Part shown: piece by piece, positions 2,999 through 62,000 of the stretch
Position numbering within the stretch: the stretch's first letter is position 1
Layout: every line of letters starts with the position of its first letter
The notes under the pieces: generated by a model
Seen by the model: the letters and a program-made list of their open reading frames with translations, nothing else
Databases searched by the model: none
Told to the model about the DNA's origin: nothing
Source: an uncultured Gammaproteobacteria bacterium
GTDB lineage: Bacteria; Patescibacteriota; Patescibacteriia; Magasanikbacterales; UBA922
Reading direction: 5' to 3'
Assembly: GCA_964597575.1 (NCBI GenBank)
Contig: CAZQXB010000001.1
Coordinates: forward strand, 206,792-270,791
DNA: 64,000 nt
Made by a program: the position numbers and the translations under genes

Positions 2999-3122
2999 CG
3001 CCGTGCAAATGCAAGAGTTCGGCTCATCAGTTCCGATACACAATCGGAAGAAGGAAGTTCCAGCGTCTAGAGCACCGTGAAGGTGGTAGACGCTGGGGAG
3101 AAAGAAAGGTCAGGTTTCGCCA

Positions 3123-5330
3123 TTAGTGGCCGGTATCGGCAGTGTCGATGTCTTCCGTTTCGTCGGCGACGGTGCTTGAATCCACGCTGGGGGCATAAGC
3201 CGTTGTGGCCGTGCTTGAGGTGCCGATCGGCGCTGCCAATCGAACCTCATCAATCACGACGTGTTCAATCCCTTCCGGCACGTCGAAGGTCGGCTTCGAG
3301 TATTCCGGCAAGAGACTGGCTTCTGCCATGAAACGAACCCAGAGTACTCGAGGGAGGTCGCCACCGGTGGCGCCCTTTCCGTTGGCCATAACGATCGGGG
3401 TATTATCGTCATACCCCACCCACACGCTGCCTCCGAGACTCGGAGTGAACCCAACAAATCGTGTCGTCCTCGACTCGTTTGTAGTTCCGGTTTTTCCGGC
3501 GATGGCCACCGGTACCTTTTTGGCAACAGGCTCTGCTACTTTCATAAGCGCGTCCGTAACGAGGTATGCGACCTCTGGGGTGAGCACTTGGGCCGGAGGC
3601 GCGAGGTTGTTTTTGAAGACCACGCTTCCATCACTGGCAAGGATTTCCTTTACCCAGTGAAATTGGGCCAACTTGCCCTGGTTCCCAAATGCCAAATAGA
3701 TAGACAAGACGTTGGTATCGCTTGCCTCTATCGCACCAATCATCGCCGACGGTTGAAAGCGCTCAATGATCCCCTCGTAGCGGAATTTTTTTGCCACCTC
3801 GATTACTGGCTCAAGATGGATCGTTCCTGGTCCCGCTGTCTCCCATTCTTCGTCGGAGATCTCGTCTTCCGGATGCCGAGAGAAGCCGAGTTTCGCCACC
3901 GTATACATCGTGCATACGTTCGATGACTTTTTGAGCCACTTCCACAAAGGAATATATCCTCCTTCCGTTTTTCCCTCGTAGTTTCGTGGTGTGTAGTCTC
4001 GTGGCGGCTTCGACTCGGCGATACGATACGTTCGACTCTCGTCGAGGCAGGCCCCAGGGAATCCGAAGATTTCTGGGTGTTCCATGGCCGCCGCGTATAC
4101 GAGCGGCTTAAAGGTCGAGCCAATCTGTCGTCGCGACTGGATGGCACGATTCCATTTTCCTGCTGCTCGTGCGGAGCGGCCACCTACCATGGCGATCATT
4201 TCTCCGGAAGGGGACATAACGGCAAAACCTGTTTCAAGCATCTTGCCCGGAGTCGAACGGACTTTGGTATCGAGTTCTTGGAGGCCTTCTCGAACCACCT
4301 TTTCTGCTATGGCCTGAACCTTCAACCGAAAGGTGGTGTACACCTTTAGTCCGTGCGCCGTCGCCTGCTCTGACCCGAGCACCTCGATGATTTGATTGCG
4401 TACATGCGTACACAGCCATCCGGTTGCATCGCCATCTGCCTCTCCAGGCGCGGTCGCAATGACAAGCGGAAACTGCTTCAGCAACGCAACCGACGAAGTC
4501 GCAACCTCGCCCATCTCGGCCATTCCGCTTAGAACATAGTTCCGTCGTTCGAGAGCCCAGTTTGGCCGGGTGGCGTTGTTGAACAGGTTGCTCGGGGCCT
4601 TATAGAGGCTTCCCAAGAACGCTGCTTCGACCGTTGTGATCTGGTCGAGTGGTTTAGCAAACCACACACGCGCGGCTTCACGAACCCCCTGAACATTGCT
4701 TCGGCCTGCACCTGCTCCATAGTTCGCGAGGTTGTGGTACATCTCGAGAATGTCTTCCTTCGAGAATACCTTTTCAATCTCGCGCGCCATTTTCAGCTCA
4801 AATCCCTTTCTCATCCACTTGTCGCCTTTCGGAACAAGATTTTGGTACGGAGCATTTGGGGCGAAGAAAAGCATCTTCACTACCTGCATGGTGATGGTCG
4901 AAGCGCCGCGCAGCTTTTTGCCGGTGCCGAGCGTCTTCACGTTGTCGTAGATTGCGGCGCCGAGGCCACGGTAGTCTACGCCATTGTGCTCGTAGAAACG
5001 TCGGTCTTCGGCGGCTAACGTAGCCTGGACCATGACCTTCGGAATTTCCTTAAACAGGACCGGTACCAGGGTGGGGGCATAGTGGGGCTTCCCGTCCACC
5101 ATCTTTTCGATGTACGGGAGCCGACAGATGATTTCCCCATCGGCATCGTATACTGTGGCATTCCGCCGCAACTCACTGCGGTAGTCCTTGACCACCGAAA
5201 TGTCCGGCATGCGCTGGCTGAAGTAGTGATCAAAGTAAAGGTAGGCCGCACCGGCCCCTACGAGAGCGATAATCCCGAGAAGAAACAAAATCACGAGAAT
5301 CTTCCAGAGCTTCTTCATGGTCGTTACCAT
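3123..5330 (-). CDS. Class A penicillin-binding protein (bifunctional transglycosylase/transpeptidase, PBP1A-type). The likely start is the second Met (MKKLWKIL..., about 5318), which begins a signal-anchor.
   Basis: N-terminal TM anchor. Transglycosylase motif EDRRFYEHNGVD. Transpeptidase SxxK (STFKP) and KTGT(T) motifs. The gene is much more GC-rich than its neighbours (hand-counted sample lines about 53-58% versus about 40%). Confidence 0.9.
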   Translation of the reverse strand: MVTTMKKLWKILVILFLLGIIALVGAGAAYLYFDHYFSQRMPDISVVKDYRSELRRNATVYDADGEIICRLPYIEKMVDGKPHYAPTLVPVLFKEIPKVMVQATLAAEDRRFYEHNGVDYRGLGAAIYDNVKTLGTGKKLRGASTITMQVVKMLFFAPNAPYQNLVPKGDKWMRKGFELKMAREIEKVFSKEDILEMYHNLANYGAGAGRSNVQGVREAARVWFAKPLDQITTVEAAFLGSLYKAPSNLFNNATRPNWALERRNYVLSGMAEMGEVATSSVALLKQFPLVIATAPGEADGDATGWLCTHVRNQIIEVLGSEQATAHGLKVYTTFRLKVQAIAEKVVREGLQELDTKVRSTPGKMLETGFAVMSPSGEMIAMVGGRSARAAGKWNRAIQSRRQIGSTFKPLVYAAAMEHPEIFGFPGACLDESRTYRIAESKPPRDYTPRNYEGKTEGGYIPLWKWLKKSSNVCTMYTVAKLGFSRHPEDEISDEEWETAGPGTIHLEPVIEVAKKFRYEGIIERFQPSAMIGAIEASDTNVLSIYLAFGNQGKLAQFHWVKEILASDGSVVFKNNLAPPAQVLTPEVAYLVTDALMKVAEPVAKKVPVAIAGKTGTTNESRTTRFVGFTPSLGGSVWVGYDDNTPIVMANGKGATGGDLPRVLWVRFMAEASLLPEYSKPTFDVPEGIEHVVIDEVRLAAPIGTSSTATTAYAPSVDSSTVADETEDIDTADTGH

Positions 5331-22057: not shown

Positions 22058-22141
22058 GGGCAAGTGGCGGAACTGGCAGACGCACTAGCTTCAGGTGCTA
22101 GCGGCCGCAAGGTCATGAGGGTTCAAGTCCCTCCTTGCCCA
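22058..22141 (+). tRNA. tRNA-Leu (anticodon CAG) with a long variable arm.
   Basis: Acceptor stem GGGCAAG/CTTGCCC. Anticodon stem CTAGC/GCTAG with loop TTCAGGT. T-arm GGGTTCAAGTCCC. Discriminator A. CCA is not encoded. Confidence 0.85.
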
Positions 22142-43867: not shown

Positions 43868-44082
43868 TAACGCACCCTCCTAAAGACGCGTTTCGCGTCT
43901 TTACCCGCACCTGCCCGAATTGGCCGGTGAAGGTAGAAAACGCCAAACCCTAACTCGAGAGTATAGAAGATTATTCTTTTTTTGTCAATAGAGCCAAATA
44001 TACCGCTTTGTGTATTAAAAAAGTGCTGAATAAAGCAAAAAACTTGCCTTTTATCGCTCTTTTTTATACAATAATAAATACT

Positions 44083-47000
44083 ATGAAAGAATTGTCAAAA
44101 GCCTTTGAGGCAAAACAGTACGAAGACTCTATCTATAAGCGCTGGGAAGAAAGCGGGTTTTTTAACCCTGATGTTTGTGTAGAAAAGGGGGTTACTGACG
44201 CTCGTGCTGAGGCGTTTACGGTTATTCTTCCGCCTCCAAATGTTACCGGAACTCTTCATATGGGTCACGCGTCCATGCTTGCCATTGAAGATCTTATGGT
44301 TCGGTACCACCGTATGAAAGGAGAGAAGACTCTTTGGCTTCCAGGAACCGATCATGCCGCCATTGCAACACAATCAAAGGTAGAAAAAATGATTAAAGAA
44401 AAAGAAGGAAAATCGCGCTACGATTTAGGCCGCGACCCTTTTCTGGCCCGAGTTCACCAGTTTGCGAAGGAATCCCATGATACGATTGTGAATCAGTGTA
44501 AAAAAATGGGCTCTTCGCTTGATTGGTCACGAGAAGCGTTCACGCTCGATGAGCCACGGAATCGGGCGGTACGAACCATGTTTAAAAAGATGTACGATGA
44601 TGGTCTGATTTATCGTGGGTCTCGTATTGTGAACTGGGATCCAAAAGGACAAACGACCATTTCAGACGATGAGCTTGTGTATGTTGAAGAAAAAACAACG
44701 TTTTATTATTTCAAATATGGGCCGTTTGTTATTGGAACTGCCCGTCCTGAAACAAAATTCGGCGATAAGTATGTGGTAATGCATCCAGACGATGAACGGT
44801 ATGCTGCGTATAAGCATGGTGATACCATTTCGGTCGAATGGATTAATGGGCCGATTACCGCCACAATTATTAAGGATACTGCCATTGATATGGCATTTGG
44901 AACAGGTGTCATGACGATTACCCCCTGGCACAGCGTGGTCGATTTTGAGATTGCTGAGCGCCACGGGCTCGAGAAAGAACAGATTATTGATGAGGCGGGG
45001 AAGCTTCTGCCGATTGCGGGAGAGTTTTCTGGTCTCCCCATATCAAAGGCGCGTGCCGGTATTGTGGAAAAATTGCGCACTAAGGGCCTTCTTGTAAGAG
45101 AAGAAGACTATGCTCACCAGGTAGCTACGGCTGAACGCACCGGTGCTTTGGTTGAACCACAAATTAAATTGCAGTGGTTTGTGAATGTAAATAAAGAATT
45201 TGAGCGCGATGGAAAAAAGACGACGCTTAAATCTCTTATGCAGGAGGCAGTAAAGAGTAAAAATATAGAAATTCTGCCCGATCGTTTTGAAAAGATCTAT
45301 TTTAGTTGGATTAATAATTTGCGTGACTGGTGTATTAGTCGCCAAATTTGGTACGGCCATCAAATTCCTGTGTGGTATCGCGGAAGCGAAATATATTGTG
45401 GCATCACTCCGCCTGCAGGAGAGGGGTGGGTGCAGGATTCAGATAGCCTCGACACCTGGTTTTCTTCAGGGCTCTGGACGTTCTCTACTTTAGGTTGGCC
45501 AGAAACGACGATTCATTTCGTGCGCCATGGGGAAGCAGAAAATAACGCTGCGAATATTGTTGACGACGGCACTGGTCCACGATCTTTTCCTCTTACAAAA
45601 AAGGGGCGAGAGCAGGTGAAAAAAACCGCCAAAGCGCTTGCGAAACAATCGATCGGTGTTATTATTTCTTCTCCCGTTCCCCGCGCTAAAGAAACCGCGG
45701 AAATTATTGCTTCAGAAGTTGGCGTGGAAATTATGTATGACGAAGCTCTCCGAGAAATTGGAATGGGCGATCTTCTCTACACTTCTCAAGATGAATTTCA
45801 TGCCAAACGTGGAGATTTTGATCGCTGGCACCACGATTCACCACACGGTGTCGAATCCTACGATGCACTTAAAGCACGTACTGCGGCATGTTTAGAAAAA
45901 ATTCTCGAAACGTACCGAGGTAAAACCGTTGTCATTGTGTCGCACGGAGACCCTATTGCTACCATGAAAAAACTCGGCACAAAATTACCTGATGGTGTGT
46001 ACGATTTGCCAGACACCGGTTCCGCCACGACCTGCACGTTTAATAATGCAAATACCCAGTCGACCGACTTCTCGGTATTTCACCCAACCTCAGTACTCGA
46101 GACCGGATATGACATCATCTTTTTTTGGGTGGCCCGCATGATTCTCATGGCAACATATGCGTTAGATCAAATTCCGTTTCGTACGGTGTACCTCCATGGA
46201 CTTGTGCGTGATGCTGAAGGGAAAAAAATGAGCAAATCCCTTGGAAATATTATTGACCCGCTCGACATGATCGAGAAGTATGGAACCGACGCTACACGTT
46301 TGTCGCTTCTTGTGGGGAATACTCCTGGAAACGACCTAAAACTTTCCGAAGAAAAAATTGCTGGATTTAGAAATTTTACCAATAAAATCTGGAACATTTC
46401 TCGCTTCATGCTTTTGAACATCGAAACGCCGCAGGCAGCAGTTACATGTCCAGAGCCAGAAACAGCGACCGATGCTTGGATTCTCTCTGAACTTTCAGCT
46501 ACGATTGAAGCGTACAGCGGACACCTTGATCAATTTGAGTACTCACAAGCAGGGGAGTTGCTTCGTGCGTTTACGTATGATACGCTGGCTGATTGGTATC
46601 TTGAACTTGCAAAACTTGAAGGGAGAAAAGATGTGTTACTCAATTATATTTTGAACACCCTCCTTACGCTGTGGCATCCGTTTATGCCATTTGTGACAGA
46701 AACAATCTGGCAAGAAATGTACGGCAAGGATGCGTTTCTTATGGTGCAGCGTTGGCCGGAGATAAAAAAAGTGAAGAAGTCAAAAAAAGAAAATCCGGTC
46801 ATGTCCGTACAAAAGGTGGTTTTAGCACTCCGTCAGTTAAAATCCGATTATCGTATTTCAAAAGCAGAAGAGGCCAGTATTGTGGCTGATAAAGGTGTGA
46901 AAAAAGAACTTGAATCGTTCCTTCCGCATATAGCGAAACTTGCCGGTGTAGTTACCATGACGTTTGCCTCAGAAATTCCAGATGGTGCCGTACATACGTT

Positions 47001-47244
47001 GGTACAGGGGGTGGGTAAAGTTACACTAACAGTAAAAGGACAGGTGGATACCGCAAAGGAAAAGATTCGTATTCAAAAAGAAATAGACTCAGTTGCGCCG
47101 TACCTCCAGGCCCTTAAAGGAAAACTTTCAAATGAAAGCTTTGTGTCGAAGGCACCGCCGCAAGTGATTGAGATTGAAAAGAAAAAACTTGCTGACGCGG
47201 AAGAAAAATTAATAAAACTTACGGAGCAACTCGCTTCACTATAA
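44083..47244 (+). CDS. valS: Valyl-tRNA synthetase carrying an in-frame insertion of about 190 aa: a histidine-phosphatase (phosphoglycerate-mutase superfamily) domain.
   Basis: HMGH (HIGH), KMSKS, tRNA-binding and the C-terminal coiled-coil are all present. Between the conserved ...WFSSGLWTFSTLGWPE and FHPTSVLETGYDIIFFWVARM blocks (normally about 7 aa apart) lies HFVRHGEAENN...SSPVPRAKETAEII...VVIVSHGDPI. The start was set at MKELSKAFEAKQYE. Confidence 0.9.
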   Translation: MKELSKAFEAKQYEDSIYKRWEESGFFNPDVCVEKGVTDARAEAFTVILPPPNVTGTLHMGHASMLAIEDLMVRYHRMKGEKTLWLPGTDHAAIATQSKVEKMIKEKEGKSRYDLGRDPFLARVHQFAKESHDTIVNQCKKMGSSLDWSREAFTLDEPRNRAVRTMFKKMYDDGLIYRGSRIVNWDPKGQTTISDDELVYVEEKTTFYYFKYGPFVIGTARPETKFGDKYVVMHPDDERYAAYKHGDTISVEWINGPITATIIKDTAIDMAFGTGVMTITPWHSVVDFEIAERHGLEKEQIIDEAGKLLPIAGEFSGLPISKARAGIVEKLRTKGLLVREEDYAHQVATAERTGALVEPQIKLQWFVNVNKEFERDGKKTTLKSLMQEAVKSKNIEILPDRFEKIYFSWINNLRDWCISRQIWYGHQIPVWYRGSEIYCGITPPAGEGWVQDSDSLDTWFSSGLWTFSTLGWPETTIHFVRHGEAENNAANIVDDGTGPRSFPLTKKGREQVKKTAKALAKQSIGVIISSPVPRAKETAEIIASEVGVEIMYDEALREIGMGDLLYTSQDEFHAKRGDFDRWHHDSPHGVESYDALKARTAACLEKILETYRGKTVVIVSHGDPIATMKKLGTKLPDGVYDLPDTGSATTCTFNNANTQSTDFSVFHPTSVLETGYDIIFFWVARMILMATYALDQIPFRTVYLHGLVRDAEGKKMSKSLGNIIDPLDMIEKYGTDATRLSLLVGNTPGNDLKLSEEKIAGFRNFTNKIWNISRFMLLNIETPQAAVTCPEPETATDAWILSELSATIEAYSGHLDQFEYSQAGELLRAFTYDTLADWYLELAKLEGRKDVLLNYILNTLLTLWHPFMPFVTETIWQEMYGKDAFLMVQRWPEIKKVKKSKKENPVMSVQKVVLALRQLKSDYRISKAEEASIVADKGVKKELESFLPHIAKLAGVVTMTFASEIPDGAVHTLVQGVGKVTLTVKGQVDTAKEKIRIQKEIDSVAPYLQALKGKLSNESFVSKAPPQVIEIEKKKLADAEEKLIKLTEQLASL
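45504..46077 (+). other. Histidine-phosphatase-superfamily domain inserted into ValS (RHG...R...SHG catalytic signature).
   Basis: RHGE(A)ENN, LTKKGREQ, ISSPVPRAKETA and VSHG motifs in the order expected for PF00300-type phosphatases. Confidence 0.75.
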
Positions 47245-48438: not shown

Positions 48439-50166
48439 ATGAATCCCATTGAACAATATCTCAAAGAGGTCTTTAAAAGCGCTGGTATTTCTGAGCCAAT
48501 TGAATTTTCACGCCCACCAAAACCAGACATGGGTGATTTTGCTTTTCCTTGTTTTGCTCTTGCAAAAGCGTCGCAAAAAAATCCGGCTCTTGTGGCAAAA
48601 GAAGTTGCGTTACTGCTTTCAACAGGAGAATACGAGGGTATTGTTTCGGCCACACCTTTTGGTCCGTATGTGAACGTGACAATCGAAGCCGCGGTGATTG
48701 CAAGGCTCGTCCTTGAAAAGGCGACAACGAATACTTTTGGTATTCACGAAACAGGAAAGGGAAAATATATTTTTGTGGAATATGGCTGTTTGAACGTTTT
48801 GAAAGCCATGCATCTTGGTCACTTAAAAAATTTGATAACCGGAGAAGCGGTTGCGCGTTTACTCGAAAACAGTGGTTACCAAGTAAAACGTATTACCTAC
48901 CAAGGAGATGTGGGGATGCATATCGGCAAGGCACTTTGGGGGATTTTTGATTGGAAAGAAAAATTCGATGCGGTCGGTAATGGCTCAGTAGATGCGCGTG
49001 TCGAATTTTTAGGCAAAGCCTATGCCCATGGCGCACAACATTTTGAAAAAGGGGAGAAAGAAAAAGAAGAGGTTGTTCAATATAATGATGCAGTATACGA
49101 AGGCAAAAATAAGGAAATTATGGGGGTATACCTTCAGGCCCGAAGTTGGAGTTTAGAGTATTTTGAAGAAATGTATAAGAAACTCGGGACCAAATATGAC
49201 GCGTATTATTTTGAGTCTGAAATGTATAAGCGCGGCATAGAAATCGTTGATGAGTTTCTTCTCAAAGGAGTCTTTGAAAAAAGTGAAGGCGCTGTTATTT
49301 TTCCCGGAAGCCGTTTTGGTTTGCACGACCGTGTGTTTGTAAACAGTAAAGGACACCCAACGTACGAAGCGAAGGATTTGGCTCGATCTGAAGTGTACTT
49401 CAAAGAAAAGCCAACACCAGATGAGGTGATTCATGTCGTTGGTAAAGAACAGTCGGAATACTTCAAAGTTGTTTTTGCAGCCATGGAAAAAATGGGAGTA
49501 GCCGGGGCGGGGAAGGAAAAACATCTTATTGGAGGTTTTCTGCAGTTGAAGGGGGATCAAAAAATGAGTTCTCGAACGGGGCACATTATTACCGGGGATC
49601 AGCTTATTACTGAGGTGCAAGAAGAATTACGAGATAAAGTGTACCAAGTAACACTAGATGAAAAAATAAAAAGCTCTCCATTAGTACATGATGTGTTACC
49701 AAAAGTAGCCATGGCCGCGCTCAAATACGGCATGCTTCGTGCCAATGTATCTCAAGATGTGGCATTTGATATGGAAGAATCAGTCAGTGTGTCGGGGGAT
49801 AGTGGCCCGTATCTTCTGTATATTGTGGCTCGTATCAAAAGTATTCAGAAAAAGGCGGGTGTTAAGAATGCCGAAATTGTAACCGTTCCTCAAAAACCCA
49901 TGGTACCAACAGAGAAACAGCTTCTCCTTCTGCTTGCAAAATACCAAACGGTGACAGCGCAGGCACTGGAAGACCTCGACCCTTCGCATATCGCAAAATA
50001 CCTCTTTACCTTAGCGCAGGCCTTTAATTCGTTCTACCATGAGGCACAGGTGATCGATGAAAATGGCGAGGCTGACTCGTTTCGTTTGTCGATTATTCGA
50101 GCGGTTGAGACGGTCATGACGAGTGGACTTGGAATTTTAGGAATCGATACCGTTGATGCCATGTAG
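48439..50166 (+). CDS. argS: Arginyl-tRNA synthetase.
   Basis: N-terminal Arg_tRNA_synt_N-like region, an HLGH (HIGH) motif and the C-terminal DALK anticodon-binding domain. Full length. Confidence 0.9.
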   Translation: MNPIEQYLKEVFKSAGISEPIEFSRPPKPDMGDFAFPCFALAKASQKNPALVAKEVALLLSTGEYEGIVSATPFGPYVNVTIEAAVIARLVLEKATTNTFGIHETGKGKYIFVEYGCLNVLKAMHLGHLKNLITGEAVARLLENSGYQVKRITYQGDVGMHIGKALWGIFDWKEKFDAVGNGSVDARVEFLGKAYAHGAQHFEKGEKEKEEVVQYNDAVYEGKNKEIMGVYLQARSWSLEYFEEMYKKLGTKYDAYYFESEMYKRGIEIVDEFLLKGVFEKSEGAVIFPGSRFGLHDRVFVNSKGHPTYEAKDLARSEVYFKEKPTPDEVIHVVGKEQSEYFKVVFAAMEKMGVAGAGKEKHLIGGFLQLKGDQKMSSRTGHIITGDQLITEVQEELRDKVYQVTLDEKIKSSPLVHDVLPKVAMAALKYGMLRANVSQDVAFDMEESVSVSGDSGPYLLYIVARIKSIQKKAGVKNAEIVTVPQKPMVPTEKQLLLLLAKYQTVTAQALEDLDPSHIAKYLFTLAQAFNSFYHEAQVIDENGEADSFRLSIIRAVETVMTSGLGILGIDTVDAM

Positions 50167-50234
50167 GTTCCGTTATCCCCATAGTCCTTTACGAGACACC
50201 TAAAAAGGTGTATAGTGTACCCAATTGAAATTCT

Positions 50235-50432
50235 ATGCCACGAGCTAAAAAAGAGCCCGTTGAACGGGTCACAATTAAGCTTCCGAAGAGTGTTGCTGCG
50301 TATTTTCGCAAAGCATTTCCCCATGGTCGGCGAAGTGATTTTGTGCAGGATTGCATTTTGCAGTACCGGCATAACCAGGAAGTTACAGAAATGGAAGAAG
50401 CCCTTCGGACGGTTACTAAAAAAAGACAATAA
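50235..50432 (+). CDS. Small ribbon-helix-helix (CopG/ParD-like) DNA-binding protein, possibly an antitoxin or regulator.
   Basis: ERVTIKLPKSVAAYFRK has a beta-strand-then-helix pattern typical of RHH proteins. It is the first gene of a compact 3-gene AT-rich cassette after argS. Confidence 0.45.
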   Translation: MPRAKKEPVERVTIKLPKSVAAYFRKAFPHGRRSDFVQDCILQYRHNQEVTEMEEALRTVTKKRQ

Positions 50433-50445
50433 ATTTTAAAGGGGT

Positions 50446-50685
50446 ATGCAAGAAACTCTACCCAAGGAGGTGGAGGAACGGATTCGCGAAGCGTGTAAAG
50501 AAACAGATGAAAATACAAAAAAACTGTACGATTTTCTGGTGGGTCGGCTAGGGAAAGAAGCGGTGAGCGAAATCCCCCTTCTTTCAAAAGAAGATCAAAT
50601 CCAGGCGTGCCTTGATCATATCATTATTGGTTTCGAGGTAGGGGATATCGTAAAAGAAGATATTGAGCACATTATTAGTACATGA
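50446..50685 (+). CDS. Hypothetical acidic 79-aa protein immediately upstream of the MazF-like toxin, a candidate unconventional antitoxin.
   Basis: Its position and spacing are the only evidence (13 nt after the RHH gene, 12 nt before the toxin gene). No AbrB/MazE-like motif recognised. Confidence 0.35.
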   Translation: MQETLPKEVEERIREACKETDENTKKLYDFLVGRLGKEAVSEIPLLSKEDQIQACLDHIIIGFEVGDIVKEDIEHIIST

Positions 50686-50697
50686 CCTTAAGGAGGT

Positions 50698-51078
50698 ATG
50701 AACCCAATGATAGTAGATTGCGATAACATGTATTGCGGAATCATTCGGCGAGGGGATGTTTTTATGTATGAAAAACACGCGGATGAATTCCTGCCTGTTG
50801 TGGTACTCCAAGATAGTATCCTGAATGAAGGGTTGCCAACCGTAGTTTGTGCCTTGATTGATCTTGGTAAAAAAACGAACGATGGGTTGGTAAATGAAGT
50901 ATTTTTACAAAAAAAAGAAACTGGCTTGCCTAAAGATGGCGTGTGCATGCTTCATAAAATTGAAACGGTTGATCGACGACGCATGGTTGCAAAAAAAGGG
51001 GAGCTGCCACGAGAGCAATTAAAAAACTTATATAAAGCGCTCGATATTACGTTCGGGCGTTTTCGGGATATTGAATAA
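50698..51078 (+). CDS. PemK/MazF-family endoribonuclease toxin.
   Basis: N-terminal RRGDVFMY (RGDI/V motif), LPVVVLQDSILN (the hhVLS block) and PTVVCALID (the vvvPiTs block) are in MazF/PemK order and spacing. The protein is 126 aa. Confidence 0.6.
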   Translation: MNPMIVDCDNMYCGIIRRGDVFMYEKHADEFLPVVVLQDSILNEGLPTVVCALIDLGKKTNDGLVNEVFLQKKETGLPKDGVCMLHKIETVDRRRMVAKKGELPREQLKNLYKALDITFGRFRDIE

Positions 51079-51174
51079 ACAGTTGCGTTTCTCACAAAGT
51101 GAGGATGAGAAACGCAAAGACATGAGGATGGTCTTCGTGTCTTTATTCAACCTTGAGAACAGAGGAGGCGAACA

Positions 51175-52299
51175 ATGGCTTCGAAGAGCGTGGAGCTTGC
51201 GAGGCCGGAAGCCTCTCGAGCGCTTGTGCATAAGGGCCAGGGACGGAGTTTCTTTGGTCGTCACGCGCGTATTCTGTTTATCATCCTGAAATGGTGGTTA
51301 CTCAGGCGACCTGTCGATTTTCTCTTTCTGGTGTACGGAACAGAGAGTGATCGTAGGAAGATGCTCCCAGGCTTCCTCGGTCCACGCGTCGGGGACAGGG
51401 TGTTCCCTGGTGGCGTTATTTCGATGGGAACCCATCGCGGTTATATCGCGGTAACGTTCAAGGACCATAACCTGATTCGGGATGATCCGAAAATTGCCTT
51501 GGATATTTTGGAGCGGACCAAGCGTGTGTTCCGCCTTTCGCCCAAAGGAACCGTGGCATTGGCGGGTCAGCTACCTGGGTTTGTTTTGCGCCAAAGCAAG
51601 ATCGAGGCTCCGTTTGTCGTGGGAAACAGGGGAACGCGCTACGCCATGGTGCGATCAACTGAACTTCTTGCGAATACGGAATTTCGTGGCATTGCGCGCG
51701 AGGAACTTACCGTGGCCGTTCTCGGTGGCGCTGGGTTCACGGGCGGAAGTGTTGTTCGGGACCTTGCCCAGGTGTTCGGCGCCGTGATTGCGTTTGATAC
51801 GCGACATGGCGAAGGGGTACCTCCTTCAAGAAGTACTGGAGATATGCCTCGGAATGTGGAGTGTCGGAGTAACCCCGAAGCTTTGCGGAAGGCGGATATC
51901 GTACTGAACTTCCTCCCCAAAGGAGACGATGTTCAATCCCTTGTTCCGTACTTCCGAAATGGCGCCGTGTTCGGTGATGACACTCATCCGATGATGTCGA
52001 GAAAGGTACGGGCCGAACTTCGAAGCAAGGGAATCTATTTCTGGAAGCTCGTCATGGAGCGCCCGGAGACCCCGCTAGAGTACGACCCTCTCCTGCCTGG
52101 TTTTTCAAGAGGGAACATTCCTGGGTGCCTCGTTGAGGCGATTGTCACCTTGGAAACTGGTCGTCGGTTCGATGTTGACTCGCATGCGACTTCATACAGC
52201 CTCAAAGAGTTTGAGGCGCAAGCGGTGTTCTCAGACATTGCTGACCAGCTTGGTTTCCGCGCTCGCTTGGTTGACCCAGACCAAGAAATGATCGGTTGA
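51175..52299 (+). CDS. GC-rich, probably horizontally acquired gene encoding an NAD(P)-binding Rossmann-fold protein of unknown specificity.
   Basis: GxGxxG (VAVLGGAGFTGGSV). Strong SD AGGAGG 6 nt before the ATG. The local GC is markedly higher than the flanks. Confidence 0.45.
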   Translation: MASKSVELARPEASRALVHKGQGRSFFGRHARILFIILKWWLLRRPVDFLFLVYGTESDRRKMLPGFLGPRVGDRVFPGGVISMGTHRGYIAVTFKDHNLIRDDPKIALDILERTKRVFRLSPKGTVALAGQLPGFVLRQSKIEAPFVVGNRGTRYAMVRSTELLANTEFRGIAREELTVAVLGGAGFTGGSVVRDLAQVFGAVIAFDTRHGEGVPPSRSTGDMPRNVECRSNPEALRKADIVLNFLPKGDDVQSLVPYFRNGAVFGDDTHPMMSRKVRAELRSKGIYFWKLVMERPETPLEYDPLLPGFSRGNIPGCLVEAIVTLETGRRFDVDSHATSYSLKEFEAQAVFSDIADQLGFRARLVDPDQEMIG

Positions 52300-55485: not shown

Positions 55486-55569
55486 GCTCAGGTGGCGTAA
55501 TTGGTAGCCGCACTACCTTGAGGTGGTAGCGCTCGCAAGGGCATGGAGGTTCGAGTCCTCTCCTGAGCA
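55486..55569 (+). tRNA. tRNA-Leu (anticodon GAG) with a long variable arm.
   Basis: Acceptor GCTCAGG/CCTGAGC. Anticodon stem CTACC/GGTAG with loop TTGAGGT. T-loop GTTCGAGTC. Discriminator A. Confidence 0.8.
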
Positions 55570-55893: not shown

Positions 55894-55997
55894 AGCTTAT
55901 TCGGTTAGATGAATACTTTTTTAGTATACTCCTTTGTAAAAAGAAAAAGTAGAGAAGGTTTTTCAACAACAAACATCTCCTTTAGGGAGATGTTTGT

Positions 55998-56431
55998 GGT
56001 TTTTCTTCGATAAGCCGAATTCTGTTTTTGCTCTTACGAGCAAATGACGATCATTTCTCTGAGTTTCGATGTTACCATCGAAATCAAACGAGCGAACTTT
56101 TCCAAGCCTTCGCGACGGGCCTGCACCACCATTGTGTTGCGGGTTCGTCGCGAAGACAAGGCTGCTCTTTCTCCAGGTAGGGTTTACCACTCCGATACCT
56201 TGCGGGTCGGAGAGTCTGGTGGCCGTAAAGCCCCAGACACTTTTCACCTTTCTCTCCTCATATAAATATGAGGGGGTAGTATTGTCTCTGTGGCACTTTC
56301 CCGCTTCTCTCTTTTGCAAGAGAGAAGGGTGGGTGTTACCCACTGCCTTTGTCGGTAACCCTTGCGGGCTAACGGGAGTTCGGACTTTCCTCTCTAGCGT
56401 GACTGATAGAGCGATCATCTGAAGATAAAAC
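55998..56431 (-). ncRNA. rnpB: RNase P RNA (bacterial type A-like).
   Basis: The minus strand contains GAGGAAAGTCCGAACTCC (P4 5' strand, consensus GGAAAGUCCGGGCUCC) and AACAGAATTCGGCTTATCG (P4 3' strand, consensus ACAGAAcCCGGCUUA). A terminator hairpin (CAAACATCTCC-ctaa-GGAGATGTTTG) lies at the 3' end and a perfect TTGACA-17-TATAAT promoter at the 5' end. The overlapping ORFs are spurious. Confidence 0.75.
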
Positions 56432-59048: not shown

Positions 59049-62000
59049 TGTTGGGAAGAGTACTTGCAGAAGCATCTTCACCACTTGATTCTCCGCGCGA
59101 GAGGGTGATATTTTTGGTGATTGCACCTGCTTCAATGGAGGTAGGAAGGTTGAGAGGTATGCTTACTGAGAGGTAGCCTCGTTTTTCGACGATGAGGCGA
59201 TAGCTGCCACCCCCGACCAAAAAGACGTATTCGCCTTTTTCATTTGTGATTTTTGTGTCTACTAATTTTTTCAGAGATTCATTGTAGAGGCGGACCACTG
59301 CGCCGGCAACTGCCTCGTGGGTGTGTGCGTCGATAATAGCCCCAGAACGTTTTGGTGTTTTTACCTTCGCATATCGGTAGAAGAGAATGCCGAGTCCAAC
59401 GTGAACCAAGACAAAACCAAATGTCTTGAGGTTCGGGGTTACGGTAAATGAGACGCCGGTGGCTACTGCACCTGCCATGGCCATACCCTGTTGAAGTGCG
59501 CGAAGCGGTTGGTTAAAGTTAAACCGACTGCGAATCACCTTGTGGGACCCCGCACGATCAAGAGCAATGCTTTTTGCAATTGGTTCTCCGTCAGCTGTTG
59601 TTACGATCGGGGTGCCGTAGTAGAGGTCGGTATGCCGACCATCTGCTTCGCGGCCATCAAGCAAAGAAGAGGGGAATACAAAACCGTCTTTTACCACCTC
59701 AAGACGGTAAGTGCCGGCTTTTGGTGTAAACAAATAGCGACCATGCATATCCGTAACACGCGTTTGGATTACTTTCCCGTTACCCTCATCAATTAATCGA
59801 ACAATGGCCAGGTCAACCGGAAGTTTTTTGTCGGTATCGTAGACCTCTCCCCAAACTTCTTTTTTGCGAAGTCCTAAAAACATGAGTGGTTGGAGGAAGA
59901 GGAAGCGGAGAAGCGGAGTAATAATAGTCCATAGTGACGAGGTGACTGCAATGGTCGAGATTGTTGTTGCAACCGGAGCGGTTACCCGTGCGACCTGGCG
60001 CACCTCTTCAGTTTCTCGAACTTCCGTTACCACACTCACGATTTCACTGTATGTTTCTTCAGCTCGAAATACGACCGCTTCAGCGATGTTTTGAGGAATT
60101 CTTTGAGGTCGTGCTTCTTGAGGCTGTGGGGATTGAGATGGTGGTGGGGTAGGAGCAGGGGGTGGCGTGGATTCTAAACCAAGAGGAAGCTCTGGAAGAG
60201 GGGTTTCCTCCTCAGGCTCTGTGGTTTCTCCTGGAACTTCCGGAGTGGATGGAGGAGGGGTTGGTGCTATTCCGCCTGCTGGTGGAGGAGGGGTTGGATT
60301 TGTGGAGCCACCGCCAGTTGATCCGCCCCCTGAAGGGGTTGGTGTTGGGGCGGGTGCTGGTGGGGTTGCGCCTGGGCCAGGAGAAGGAGGTGGAGGATTT
60401 GGCGTGGTTGGTGTTGGGGTAGGTGTCGGAGGTGGTGGGTTAGGTGTTACCGGATTTGGGGTCGGATTCGGTGTTGGTGGTGGAGGATTTGGCGTGGTTG
60501 GTGTTGGGGTAGGTGTCGGAGGTGGTGGGTTAGGTGTTGGCGGTGGAGGGGCAGCGCTATCAATGTATTCAATGGTGTCAGAAGCATCTGACTGGCCTCC
60601 AACATTGGTGCGGAAGCGTGCGAACACAGTTTTCATGCCAAAACCAGGCGTAAGAACCCACGGCATGTTGTTTACATATGGTTCGTATGAGGCATCTGCC
60701 AAATCTGGAAGATTTGAAACTGCGATTTGGTCTGCGCTTGGAACATCAAACGTGAGTGTTACGTTTCGAGAAGGTGTGGTGGGGTCTCCATCATTAATGG
60801 TAATTGCCGGACCGTTGGAGTTTGCACCGCCACCTCCCCCCCCGGATGGACTTGGGTTAATAGGAGGAGGGGGTGTTGGGGTAAAGCCACCAACGGAAAG
60901 GGTAGAAAATGGTCCACCAGAAATGCTTGCTTCTTGGTTGTTCACATCACGTGCTACGATGGTAAAGGAGTAGGATTGGCCATTGTTTAATCCTGTAAAA
61001 CGGAATGAAGTAGCTCCGGTCCACCCCGACGTTCGACTTGGGTCGTCGGTATCATATACCTGGTATTGAGTGGTTTGATCGTTGCCATTTGTACCCCAAC
61101 TTACGGTCATTTCAGTTGGTGTGATATTTGACACGCCGGCATCGCTTACGGGGTTTGGAAGAGTGTAAAAGGCAGTGGGTGTTCCTGAAGCGTAATTACC
61201 ATATTCGTCGTACGCCCAAATATTAACCGTATATACTGAAGAGCGTGCAAGACCGCTAAGAACGATTCCTGTTGCTCCGCCGTAGGTGCTTGTGGCCAGT
61301 GCGCTTTCTGTGGAAGAGGTGACTCGTGAATCTGTTGTGGTTGGAGGTGTGAGGTCTGGGCGGTAAAAAATACGATAATCAGAAAAATTTGCATCAGAAG
61401 AGGGTGTGCCAAAAACGAGCCGTGCACTTGTTTGAGATCGTTCAGCTACCGTCAGGTCCCCCGGGGTAGTTGGGTCTGTAAGATCAATCATACCAAACCA
61501 TCCGTCTACACGGCCGCGATCAATCGCATACTGGCCAGATGCATCAATAAGTGTTGGGTGGATATTTCTATTTTGTATCACTTGCAAGAATCGAATGTCC
61601 CGAGTTCCTATGGGGTTAATAGATGCCTGAACAACATCATGCGCGCTTGCAGCACTGCTGTTGAGCGATGAGCGAATAGAAAGAAGCGCTGTTGATGATG
61701 TACCTTGAAGGGTAAGGGCTCCGTTGATCGTAGTTGTTACTCCGGCTGGAAAGAAGAATTCTTGACTATTGGTGGCTATTTTTGTTATTCCGCCGAACGT
61801 AAGGTCGTGGGACGAGAGAATTGCCTGACTTCCATTTCGGGTCAATAAAAGAGTGGTCGATGCAGCGTCGACGGTACCGATAATGCTCGTCGTCCGATAG
61901 TCAAAAACGATTGGAATGGGAGGGAGGCGAATAATACTACCCGTATTTACACTAAGAACGGTTAATGTAGAGGCTGCCGAGTATTGTCGGAGGGTAAGGC

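Follow-up and report, generated by a model that had tools for sequence, protein, structure and literature searches.

The described systems closest to the locus analysed here are the Gram-positive MazEF modules, namely EndoAI/EndoA (MazE/MazF) of Bacillus subtilis (PDB 4ME7) and MazEF of Staphylococcus aureus, which provide the best profile matches to its toxin (approximately 1e-14 to 6e-12). The locus is a compact group of three small genes, here termed ORF1 to ORF3 (open reading frames 1 to 3), that follows the aminoacyl-tRNA synthetase (aaRS) gene argS in a 64,000-nucleotide stretch of contig CAZQXB010000001.1; this whole stretch is referred to as the window. We read the group, with moderate confidence, as an autoregulated and chromosomally fixed MazE/MazF-type toxin-antitoxin (TA) operon of Candidatus Magasanikbacteria (Patescibacteria, or candidate phyla radiation, CPR) that carries an optional third gene.

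As in the Gram-positive modules, the toxin is preceded by a small partner that is probably of the ribbon-helix-helix (RHH) type and ends in a C-terminal helix; the pair is bicistronic and putatively autoregulated, and it occupies a fixed chromosomal position within its lineage instead of residing on mobile DNA. The locus differs from these modules in that the equivalents of Arg25 and Thr48 of B. subtilis MazF, the canonical catalytic residues, are not conserved, in that the beta1-beta2 loop of the toxin is 6-8 residues shorter than the canonical one, and in that the toxin family possesses the additional invariant segments FDLDKMYCG (N-terminal) and GRFRD (C-terminal). Moreover, ORF1 shows no above-threshold match to MazE, and about one third of the species carry an additional gene within the module.

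The order of a DNA-binding protein, a small helical protein and a toxin within one operon is shared with the omega-epsilon-zeta and paaR-paaA-parE systems. Omega is an RHH protein that binds short direct and inverted repeats, and its operator repeats resemble the two direct and one inverted GTRCACCT repeats found here. In both of these systems, however, the middle gene is an indispensable antitoxin and the toxin is the zeta kinase or ParE, whereas here the middle gene is absent from 20 of 31 species and the toxin belongs to the PemK/MazF family. The closest functional analogy for ORF2 is offered by the type II TA systems pasABC and pasAB of pTF-FC2 and pTC-F14, in which a third small protein, present in some relatives only, is unneeded for neutralisation or regulation (PMC4803016). 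Unlike ORF2, pasC lies downstream of the toxin gene, is plasmid-borne and accompanies a different toxin family; ORF2 itself has no sequence relation to anything known.

The toxin fold and the operon logic are familiar, and the novelty lies in the optional third-component family, in the fixation of the module in the core genome and in the non-canonical catalytic positions. Our literature search found no paper on TA systems in Magasanikbacteria, on a third component of this kind beside a MazF, or on TA operons that include a death-like domain. CPR bacteria have tiny genomes with few recognised defence or stress systems, and a MazEF-like pair that is held at one position across a class while evolving more slowly than an aaRS points to housekeeping regulation over selfish addiction.

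Gene content and fixed position of the operon

The three genes are co-oriented and lie directly 3' of the argS stop codon (50164-50166), all on the plus strand, as a preliminary description of the window had proposed. ORF1 (50235-50432) encodes a basic protein of 65 amino acids (aa) with an isoelectric point (pI) of 10.1, ORF2 (50446-50685) the optional third component of 79 aa, and ORF3 (50707-51078) a 123-aa protein with a PemK/MazF fold. ORF3 would be extended to 126 aa if translation began at another ATG, at 50698; the start at 50707 appears likelier, because it lies 10 nucleotides (nt) after a GGAGG and reproduces the family N-terminus M-x-F-D-x-D-x-MYCG. ORF2 is preceded by the Shine-Dalgarno-like sequence AAAGGGG. 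The group is bounded by one promoter upstream and one hairpin downstream, with a small gene placed directly 5' of the toxin gene as in MazEF-type operons. The hairpin, a stem-loop with perfect 12-bp arms at 51083-51117 (plus strand; dG -16.4 kcal/mol, z -4.5), directly follows the toxin stop codon and represents a terminator-like operon end that lacks a U tract; equivalent hairpins are found 3' of the toxin gene in three related loci (L003, L007 and L010). Packing is tight across loci, with gaps of mostly 1-14 nt and 4-nt ATGA-type overlaps in several of them. The depiction of this cassette as AT-rich does not hold, its GC content (0.40-0.45) being close to that of the flanking aaRS genes (0.42-0.48) and to the window mean of 0.46.

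Toxin homologues at 63-76% identity reside in loci with the same gene order as the window, which runs valS, tyrS, argS, ORF1, (ORF2), toxin, a GC-rich gene, a seven-transmembrane (7TM) histidine kinase, bactofilin and DAGK. The part of this order that extends from argS to the histidine kinase recurs in dozens of Ca. Magasanikbacteria genomes. When one genome per GTDB species was scanned, 31 loci were obtained, nearly all labelled Ca. Magasanikbacteria or Patescibacteria, and the presence of each gene was scored with hidden Markov models for the three proteins run against six-frame translations of every locus. An ORF1 homologue of 62-69 aa lies directly upstream of the toxin gene (or of ORF2) in all 31 species representatives. 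ORF2 is present between the two in 11 of the 31; the remaining 20 keep an intact ORF1 and toxin gene that directly adjoin each other. The ORF1-toxin gaps range from -4 to +71 nt and mostly measure 10 nt or less.

The module is preceded by argS, in the same orientation, in 33 of the 36 distinct loci. Identity to the window amounts to 50-83% for ORF1 and 42-74% for the toxin, compared with 32-74% for the C-terminal 300 residues of ArgRS; ORF1 and the toxin evolve more slowly than ArgRS. All three genes of the operon are under purifying selection, with ratios of non-synonymous to synonymous substitution rates (dN/dS) of 0.04-0.14 for ORF1, 0.06-0.16 for the toxin and a higher 0.17-0.48 for ORF2, values that are qualitative only, as dS is saturated. 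Gene order and protein comparison together indicate that the operon is vertically inherited across Candidatus Magasanikbacteria and chromosomally fixed.

The database titles of some of the genomes deserve a remark of their own. Twelve species-representative metagenome-assembled genomes among the loci compared (L017, L019, L021, L022, L026, L028, L032, L036, L039, L041, L043 and L044) bear the title 'uncultured Gammaproteobacteria bacterium' in TPA records, and their gene order and protein similarity suggest that these titles are placeholders or errors.

The toxin-fold protein, its partner and their control region

ORF3 scores 53.7 bits with Pfam PF02452 (PemK_toxin; cutoff 23.1 bits, E-value 2.8e-14) and also matches the PHROG family 'MazF-like growth inhibitor' at 3.8e-10. 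A profile built from the toxin family and searched against the PDB retrieves S. aureus MazF (4of1 and 4mzm, approximately 1.1e-14 to 1.2e-14), B. subtilis EndoA (4mdx/4me7, approximately 6e-12) and B. anthracis PemK (4hke), the alignment covering profile positions 12-117. The PemK/MazF assignment made earlier from a few peptides, all of which are present, is hereby confirmed: ORF3 is a divergent PemK/MazF-fold protein nearest the Gram-positive MazF/EndoA clade and presumably acts as a sequence-specific RNase. Its family also shows the near-invariant cysteines C13, C51 and C83 (window numbering), which, like the GRFRD segment, are absent from canonical MazF. The matched Gram-positive MazF/EndoA proteins have RHH-type antitoxins, which fits an RHH nature of ORF1.

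The description of ORF1 as an RHH DNA-binding protein is plausible, and the evidence for an RHH or MazE-like character is consistent, though every single item of it is weak. The NCBIfam model NF050104 (MazE) is matched by ORF1 of the window with an E-value of 0.053 and by 6 of 34 family members, the best with 0.0076, all far below the 65-bit cutoff. In hhalign comparisons with manually entered reference sequences, the ORF1 profile aligns with CopG at P 0.005, with the whole RHH in register, with B. subtilis MazE at P 0.037, likewise in register, and with Arc at P 0.043; non-RHH controls gave P 0.4-0.6, and nothing was obtained against AbrB-type MazE, Phd and an XRE antitoxin. A single-sequence AlphaFold model of the monomer, of low confidence (predicted local distance difference test score, pLDDT, 68.6), places an extended segment at residues 1-17 and helices at 18-27 and 33-63. 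RHH proteins carry a G-x-S/T/N loop between their helices, and the inter-helix loop H-G-x-R-S of the ORF1 family, in which H30, G31, R33 and S34 are invariant, appears to fit this pattern. ORF1 has no match in Pfam, PADLOC or PHROG, and a PDB profile search yielded only a spurious 22-residue match to GFP. At its C-terminus the family shares the conserved tail E-[IV]-x-x-[MI]-E-x-x-L-R-x-x-x-K-x-R-Q, and both the length of the protein and this tail are the same in loci with and without ORF2. Judged from these comparisons, ORF1 is probably an RHH MazE-like antitoxin and autorepressor.

The cis-acting evidence for ORF1 as a repressor is stronger than that from profiles and structure. A sigma-70-like promoter is predicted at 50188-50216 on the plus strand, with TTTACG (50188-50193) as the -35 and TATAGT (50211-50216) as the -10 hexamer, separated by a 17-nt spacer. 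It equals the element formerly given as TTACGA-16-TATAGT. As a consensus match it does not exceed chance (three found, 3.0 expected), and its support derives from conservation, since a -35 TTTACA and the -10 positions are kept across approximately 30 related loci. Between the two hexamers lies the perfect palindrome ACACCT-AAAA-AGGTGT (50196-50211, plus strand), which occurs once in the 64-kb window, with 0.02 occurrences expected by chance, and is conserved in most related loci. The upstream order typical of the family is TTATCCACA, GTRCACYT, TTTACA (-35), GTRCACCT, a spacer of 4-6 nt and AGGTGTA, the latter overlapping the -10. Relatives accordingly display three GTRCACCT repeats, two direct and one inverted, of which the window palindrome represents the last two; the window retains this palindromic pair together with both promoter hexamers. 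Small dimeric repressors typically have operators arranged in this way, with an 8-mer in two direct copies and one inverted copy, and the palindrome with its associated repeats is the probable operator of a putative ORF1 repressor.

Directly 5' of the promoter stands TTATCCCCA (50173-50181, plus strand), one mismatch away from the DnaA-box consensus TTATCCACA. The window and its close relatives carry TTATCCCCA in place of the exact TTATCCACA, which is present on the plus strand, 54-105 nt 5' of the ORF1 ATG, in 23 of the 36 related loci (L010, L018-L044), with only 8 other copies in 219 kb of locus sequence. This site could permit DnaA-dependent control of the operon, or it could serve another factor; our literature search found no paper on a DnaA box at a TA promoter. 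One GC-rich relative, L045, stands apart: there, a tandem 8-mer array (TCCTACTA TCCTACTA TCCTACTT ACCTACTA TCCTA) stands at 2650-2752 of the locus (5' of ORF1) in place of the usual operator and promoter, and this array could be an alternative operator.

On this basis, the following mode of action can be proposed. ORF1 would bind to the GTRCACCT repeats on either side of the -35 and -10 and thereby repress the operon; like the RHH-type MazE of Bacillus, it would also neutralise ORF3, using its conserved C-terminal helix. The latter role is suggested by the co-occurrence of the two proteins and by the conserved tail. ORF3, once free, would act as a sequence-specific RNase despite the missing canonical Arg and Thr. 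Where ORF2 exists, it would most likely bind the MazE-MazF complex as an accessory modulator, and could serve as an auxiliary neutraliser like PasC or as an adaptor that tunes activation.

Several observations weigh against this reading as a MazE/MazF-type operon. ORF1 is not assigned to an RHH family by any above-threshold profile match: the Pfam search gave none, the PDB search a spurious hit and NCBIfam a sub-cutoff match. ORF1 is strongly basic (pI approximately 10) and most of the toxins are acidic to neutral, which inverts the distribution of charge known from textbooks. Across 36 members of the toxin family, the position of the catalytic Arg is occupied by K, Q, L, E and others (Leu in the window) and that of Thr48 mostly by Glu (Asp in the window); the shortened beta1-beta2 loop adds to these departures. 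Finally, the role given to ORF2 is pure inference.

Some of these features lend themselves to a different explanation, in which a PemK fold that has lost its nuclease activity and an RHH protein form a domesticated regulatory module. The two would work either as a transcription factor with its co-repressor or as partners that bind RNA in a housekeeping role; their module would be a fixed part of the core genome, with a possible link to DnaA, to the GC-rich gene or to the histidine kinase. Besides the altered catalytic columns and the loop, this explanation would account for the fixed position after argS (33 of 36 loci), for conservation above that of ArgRS, for the absence of plasmid relatives above 32% identity, for the invariant N- and C-terminal extensions peculiar to this toxin family, for the DnaA-box-like motif conserved upstream and for a GC-rich neighbour in nearly every locus. 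We nevertheless regard it as unlikely. Catalytic residues are known to differ among MazF paralogues, and the mazEF loci of Bacillus and Staphylococcus are likewise fixed in gene order, yet constitute an active RNase system. The pairing of the genes, their translational coupling and the putative autoregulatory operator are typical of type II TA modules, and no direct sign points to inactivity of ORF3.

The optional middle gene

The three-gene arrangement with a non-canonical middle gene, as it had been proposed for this locus, is real and conserved. A 61%-identical homologue of ORF2 in the same gene order is found on an independent contig; a profile built from two ORF2 sequences and run against 1.84 billion representative proteins retrieved 22 relatives of 79-95 aa, and the family shares the C-terminal motif LS.E.K.QAC[LI][DE]H..IG...GDI...[DE]I. 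All of the distinct homologues examined, at least 21 in number, lie between an ORF1 homologue and a toxin gene. The gene keeps this place even in loci with rearranged flanks (P0053, P0052 and P0040), and four metagenome loci carry it in the same context. Conservation and context mark ORF2 as a genuine gene and as the representative of a previously unannotated family specific to this operon context; it is a lineage-specific, faster-evolving small helical protein. Neither Pfam, NCBIfam, PADLOC nor PHROG holds a match to ORF2, Pfam holds none to 23 family members, and a PDB profile search with the family gave alpha-repeat noise only. The portrayal of the 79-aa product as acidic and without a recognisable family stands for the window, where its pI is 4.6; acidity is no family trait, as the pI of the relatives ranges from 4.5 to 9.7.

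The order of regulator, small acidic protein and toxin is that of omega-epsilon-zeta and paaR-paaA-parE, and it raises the prospect of a tripartite system in which ORF1 is the repressor only, ORF2 the true antitoxin and ORF3 the toxin. The acidity of ORF2 in the window would suit such a role, as would its tight packing with the toxin gene, from which it is never found apart (in many loci 1-4 nt separate the two, and in L033 they overlap by 4 nt). The distribution of the gene makes this improbable. On a neighbour-joining tree of ORF1 and toxin, the presence of ORF2 requires at least seven changes of state, and of the two sister loci L021 and L022 only the latter carries ORF2; a clean excision sets L021 apart, where ORF1 overlaps the toxin gene by 4 nt. 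Because many species have lost ORF2 while ORF1 and ORF3 stay intact, as in the 20 of 31 species mentioned above, ORF2 cannot be an essential antitoxin. A takeover of the antitoxin role in those species that possess it is argued against by the ORF1 tail, which is no less conserved where ORF2 is present (mean pairwise identity 0.53, against 0.43 where it is absent) and hence not relaxed. Added to this are the variable charge of the family and the outcome of hhalign comparisons, in which ORF2 showed no relation to the C-terminal, toxin-binding regions of MazE, to epsilon or to PaaA2. The suggestion that the middle gene encodes a novel antitoxin partner for MazF is accordingly not upheld, and ORF2 is probably, as its distribution suggests, a dispensable accessory component. 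We also considered that ORF1 and ORF2 might together form a split MazE, and rejected this possibility, since neither the length nor the tail of ORF1 changes when ORF2 is present, and ORF2 is unlike MazE tails.

The AlphaFold model of ORF2, which consists of five helices (pLDDT 85), was compared with known structures. This brought up the death domains of RIPK1 and FADD and several pyrin domains, over 67-75 aligned residues. Foldseek searches against PDB and BFVD gave nothing significant, with a CARD in first or second place of each list (E at least 2.6, template modelling score approximately 0.45). The death-fold domains (CARD, DD and PYD) differ from the ORF2 model in having six helices instead of five and share no sequence or profile similarity with it, hhalign against CARD and DD sequences giving P 0.08 or worse. 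The modelled resemblance to the death fold may serve as a lead; it does not amount to membership. Bacterial death-like domains have been described as fused to or partnered with STAND NTPases, proteases and other effectors, not with MazEF (Kaur et al., 2021, PMC8195603; Wein et al., PMC10312443).

We speculate, and consider it doubtful, that ORF2 founds a new, CPR-specific family of death-fold-like adaptors within a core MazEF-type module, where it would act as a sensor or adaptor that times the release of the RNase. A wider version of this idea holds that the whole module may be a domesticated regulatory RNase system tied to DnaA via the conserved TTATCCACA box, and that the downstream GC-rich genes for lipid enzymes may be kept poor in AU-rich cleavage sites and thereby escape the RNase. 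If true, the adaptor role of ORF2 would mean that type II TA systems possess a further, new class of third component. Species with and without ORF2, such as those represented by L021 and L022, provide a natural contrast from which the contribution of third components to TA modules could be learnt. The missing catalytic residues, the DnaA-box-like site and the GC-rich downstream gene are further oddities open to experiment.

The downstream gene and the question of mobility

Outside the operon, though regularly accompanying it, the neighbouring gene at 51175-52299 (plus strand, 374 aa) has a GC content of 0.55, and of 0.57 at third codon positions (GC3), compared with approximately 0.39 in its neighbours. 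It had been regarded as a GC-rich foreign gene, of which the first part stands. As for a foreign origin, the gene directly 3' of the toxin is GC-rich in 29 of 33 loci, where it exceeds the preceding 3 kb by 0.08-0.27, which makes GC-richness a conserved feature of the locus. GC-richness alone is, moreover, no proof of foreign origin, because the core gene for the class A penicillin-binding protein PBP1 (Transgly and Transpeptidase domains; 3123-5330, minus strand) is equally GC-rich. Besides the downstream gene, the GC-rich stretches of the window are 3001-5100, which corresponds to this PBP1 gene, and 60001-60600 (GC 0.53-0.57, against the mean of 0.46).

The genes that occupy this slot in loci L003-L047 fall into at least eight blastp clusters, among them NAD-binding Rossmann/acyl-ACP-reductase-like, CER1-like_C, KAS III-like and methyltransferase-like proteins and one Cys-rich protein. 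Their shared GC-richness may be due to selection, for instance against an RNase motif, or to genes having entered the same slot repeatedly. Avoidance of a MazF cleavage motif by the slot genes was examined as a candidate: k-mers containing TTA show the strongest depletion when compared with synonymous shuffles (z approximately -9), a result that is suggestive and too unspecific to count as support.

The cassette and the downstream gene had together been interpreted as a small mobile or addiction island; such an island would have been inserted recently after the aaRS genes along with a foreign GC-rich gene. The cassette does possess a promoter and a terminator of its own, the downstream gene deviates in composition, and the slot genes stem from several unrelated families, so that the slot may turn over. 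All the same, an island of this kind is very improbable. The GC content of the cassette equals that of its flanks, and the gene order is kept across species whose ArgRS is only 32-74% identical. Searches for flanking repeats and att sites around the cassette returned only short chance matches, and the nearest tRNA gene lies approximately 4.4 kb downstream, at 55486. Among plasmid records there is no ORF1 homologue, and MazF appears in eight records only, at no more than 32% identity. The patchy distribution of mobile TA systems is thus not seen here. The reading as a mobile island is left unsupported because the order is conserved, flanking repeats are lacking and close plasmid homologues are absent, and the slow evolution of ORF1 and the toxin relative to ArgRS accords with this.

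That ORF2 might be a spurious ORF in an intergenic spacer, as the lack of domain-library matches and the single close homologue in the word-indexed search could suggest, is effectively refuted by 22 profile relatives that are similar in length and have the C-terminal motif in common, by its in-frame position between ORF1 and the toxin gene in 11 species representatives and in metagenome loci, by a dN/dS below 0.5, by the Shine-Dalgarno-like sequence and by the confidence of its structural model.

The window contains a few further features that are worth recording. In the valyl-tRNA synthetase upstream of the operon (44008-47244, plus strand, 1078 aa), a phosphoglycerate-mutase-like histidine-phosphatase domain (PF00300 His_Phos_1, 'TIHFVRHGEAENN...') is found inside the catalytic tRNA-synt_1 domain; this insertion is shared by the close relative L003 (1074 aa) and absent from the enzyme of the more distant L004 (891 aa). 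Two long tRNA genes of 84 nt are located at 22058-22141 and 55486-55569, both on the plus strand, and a bacterial class A RNase P RNA is encoded at 55995-56430 on the minus strand (146 bits).

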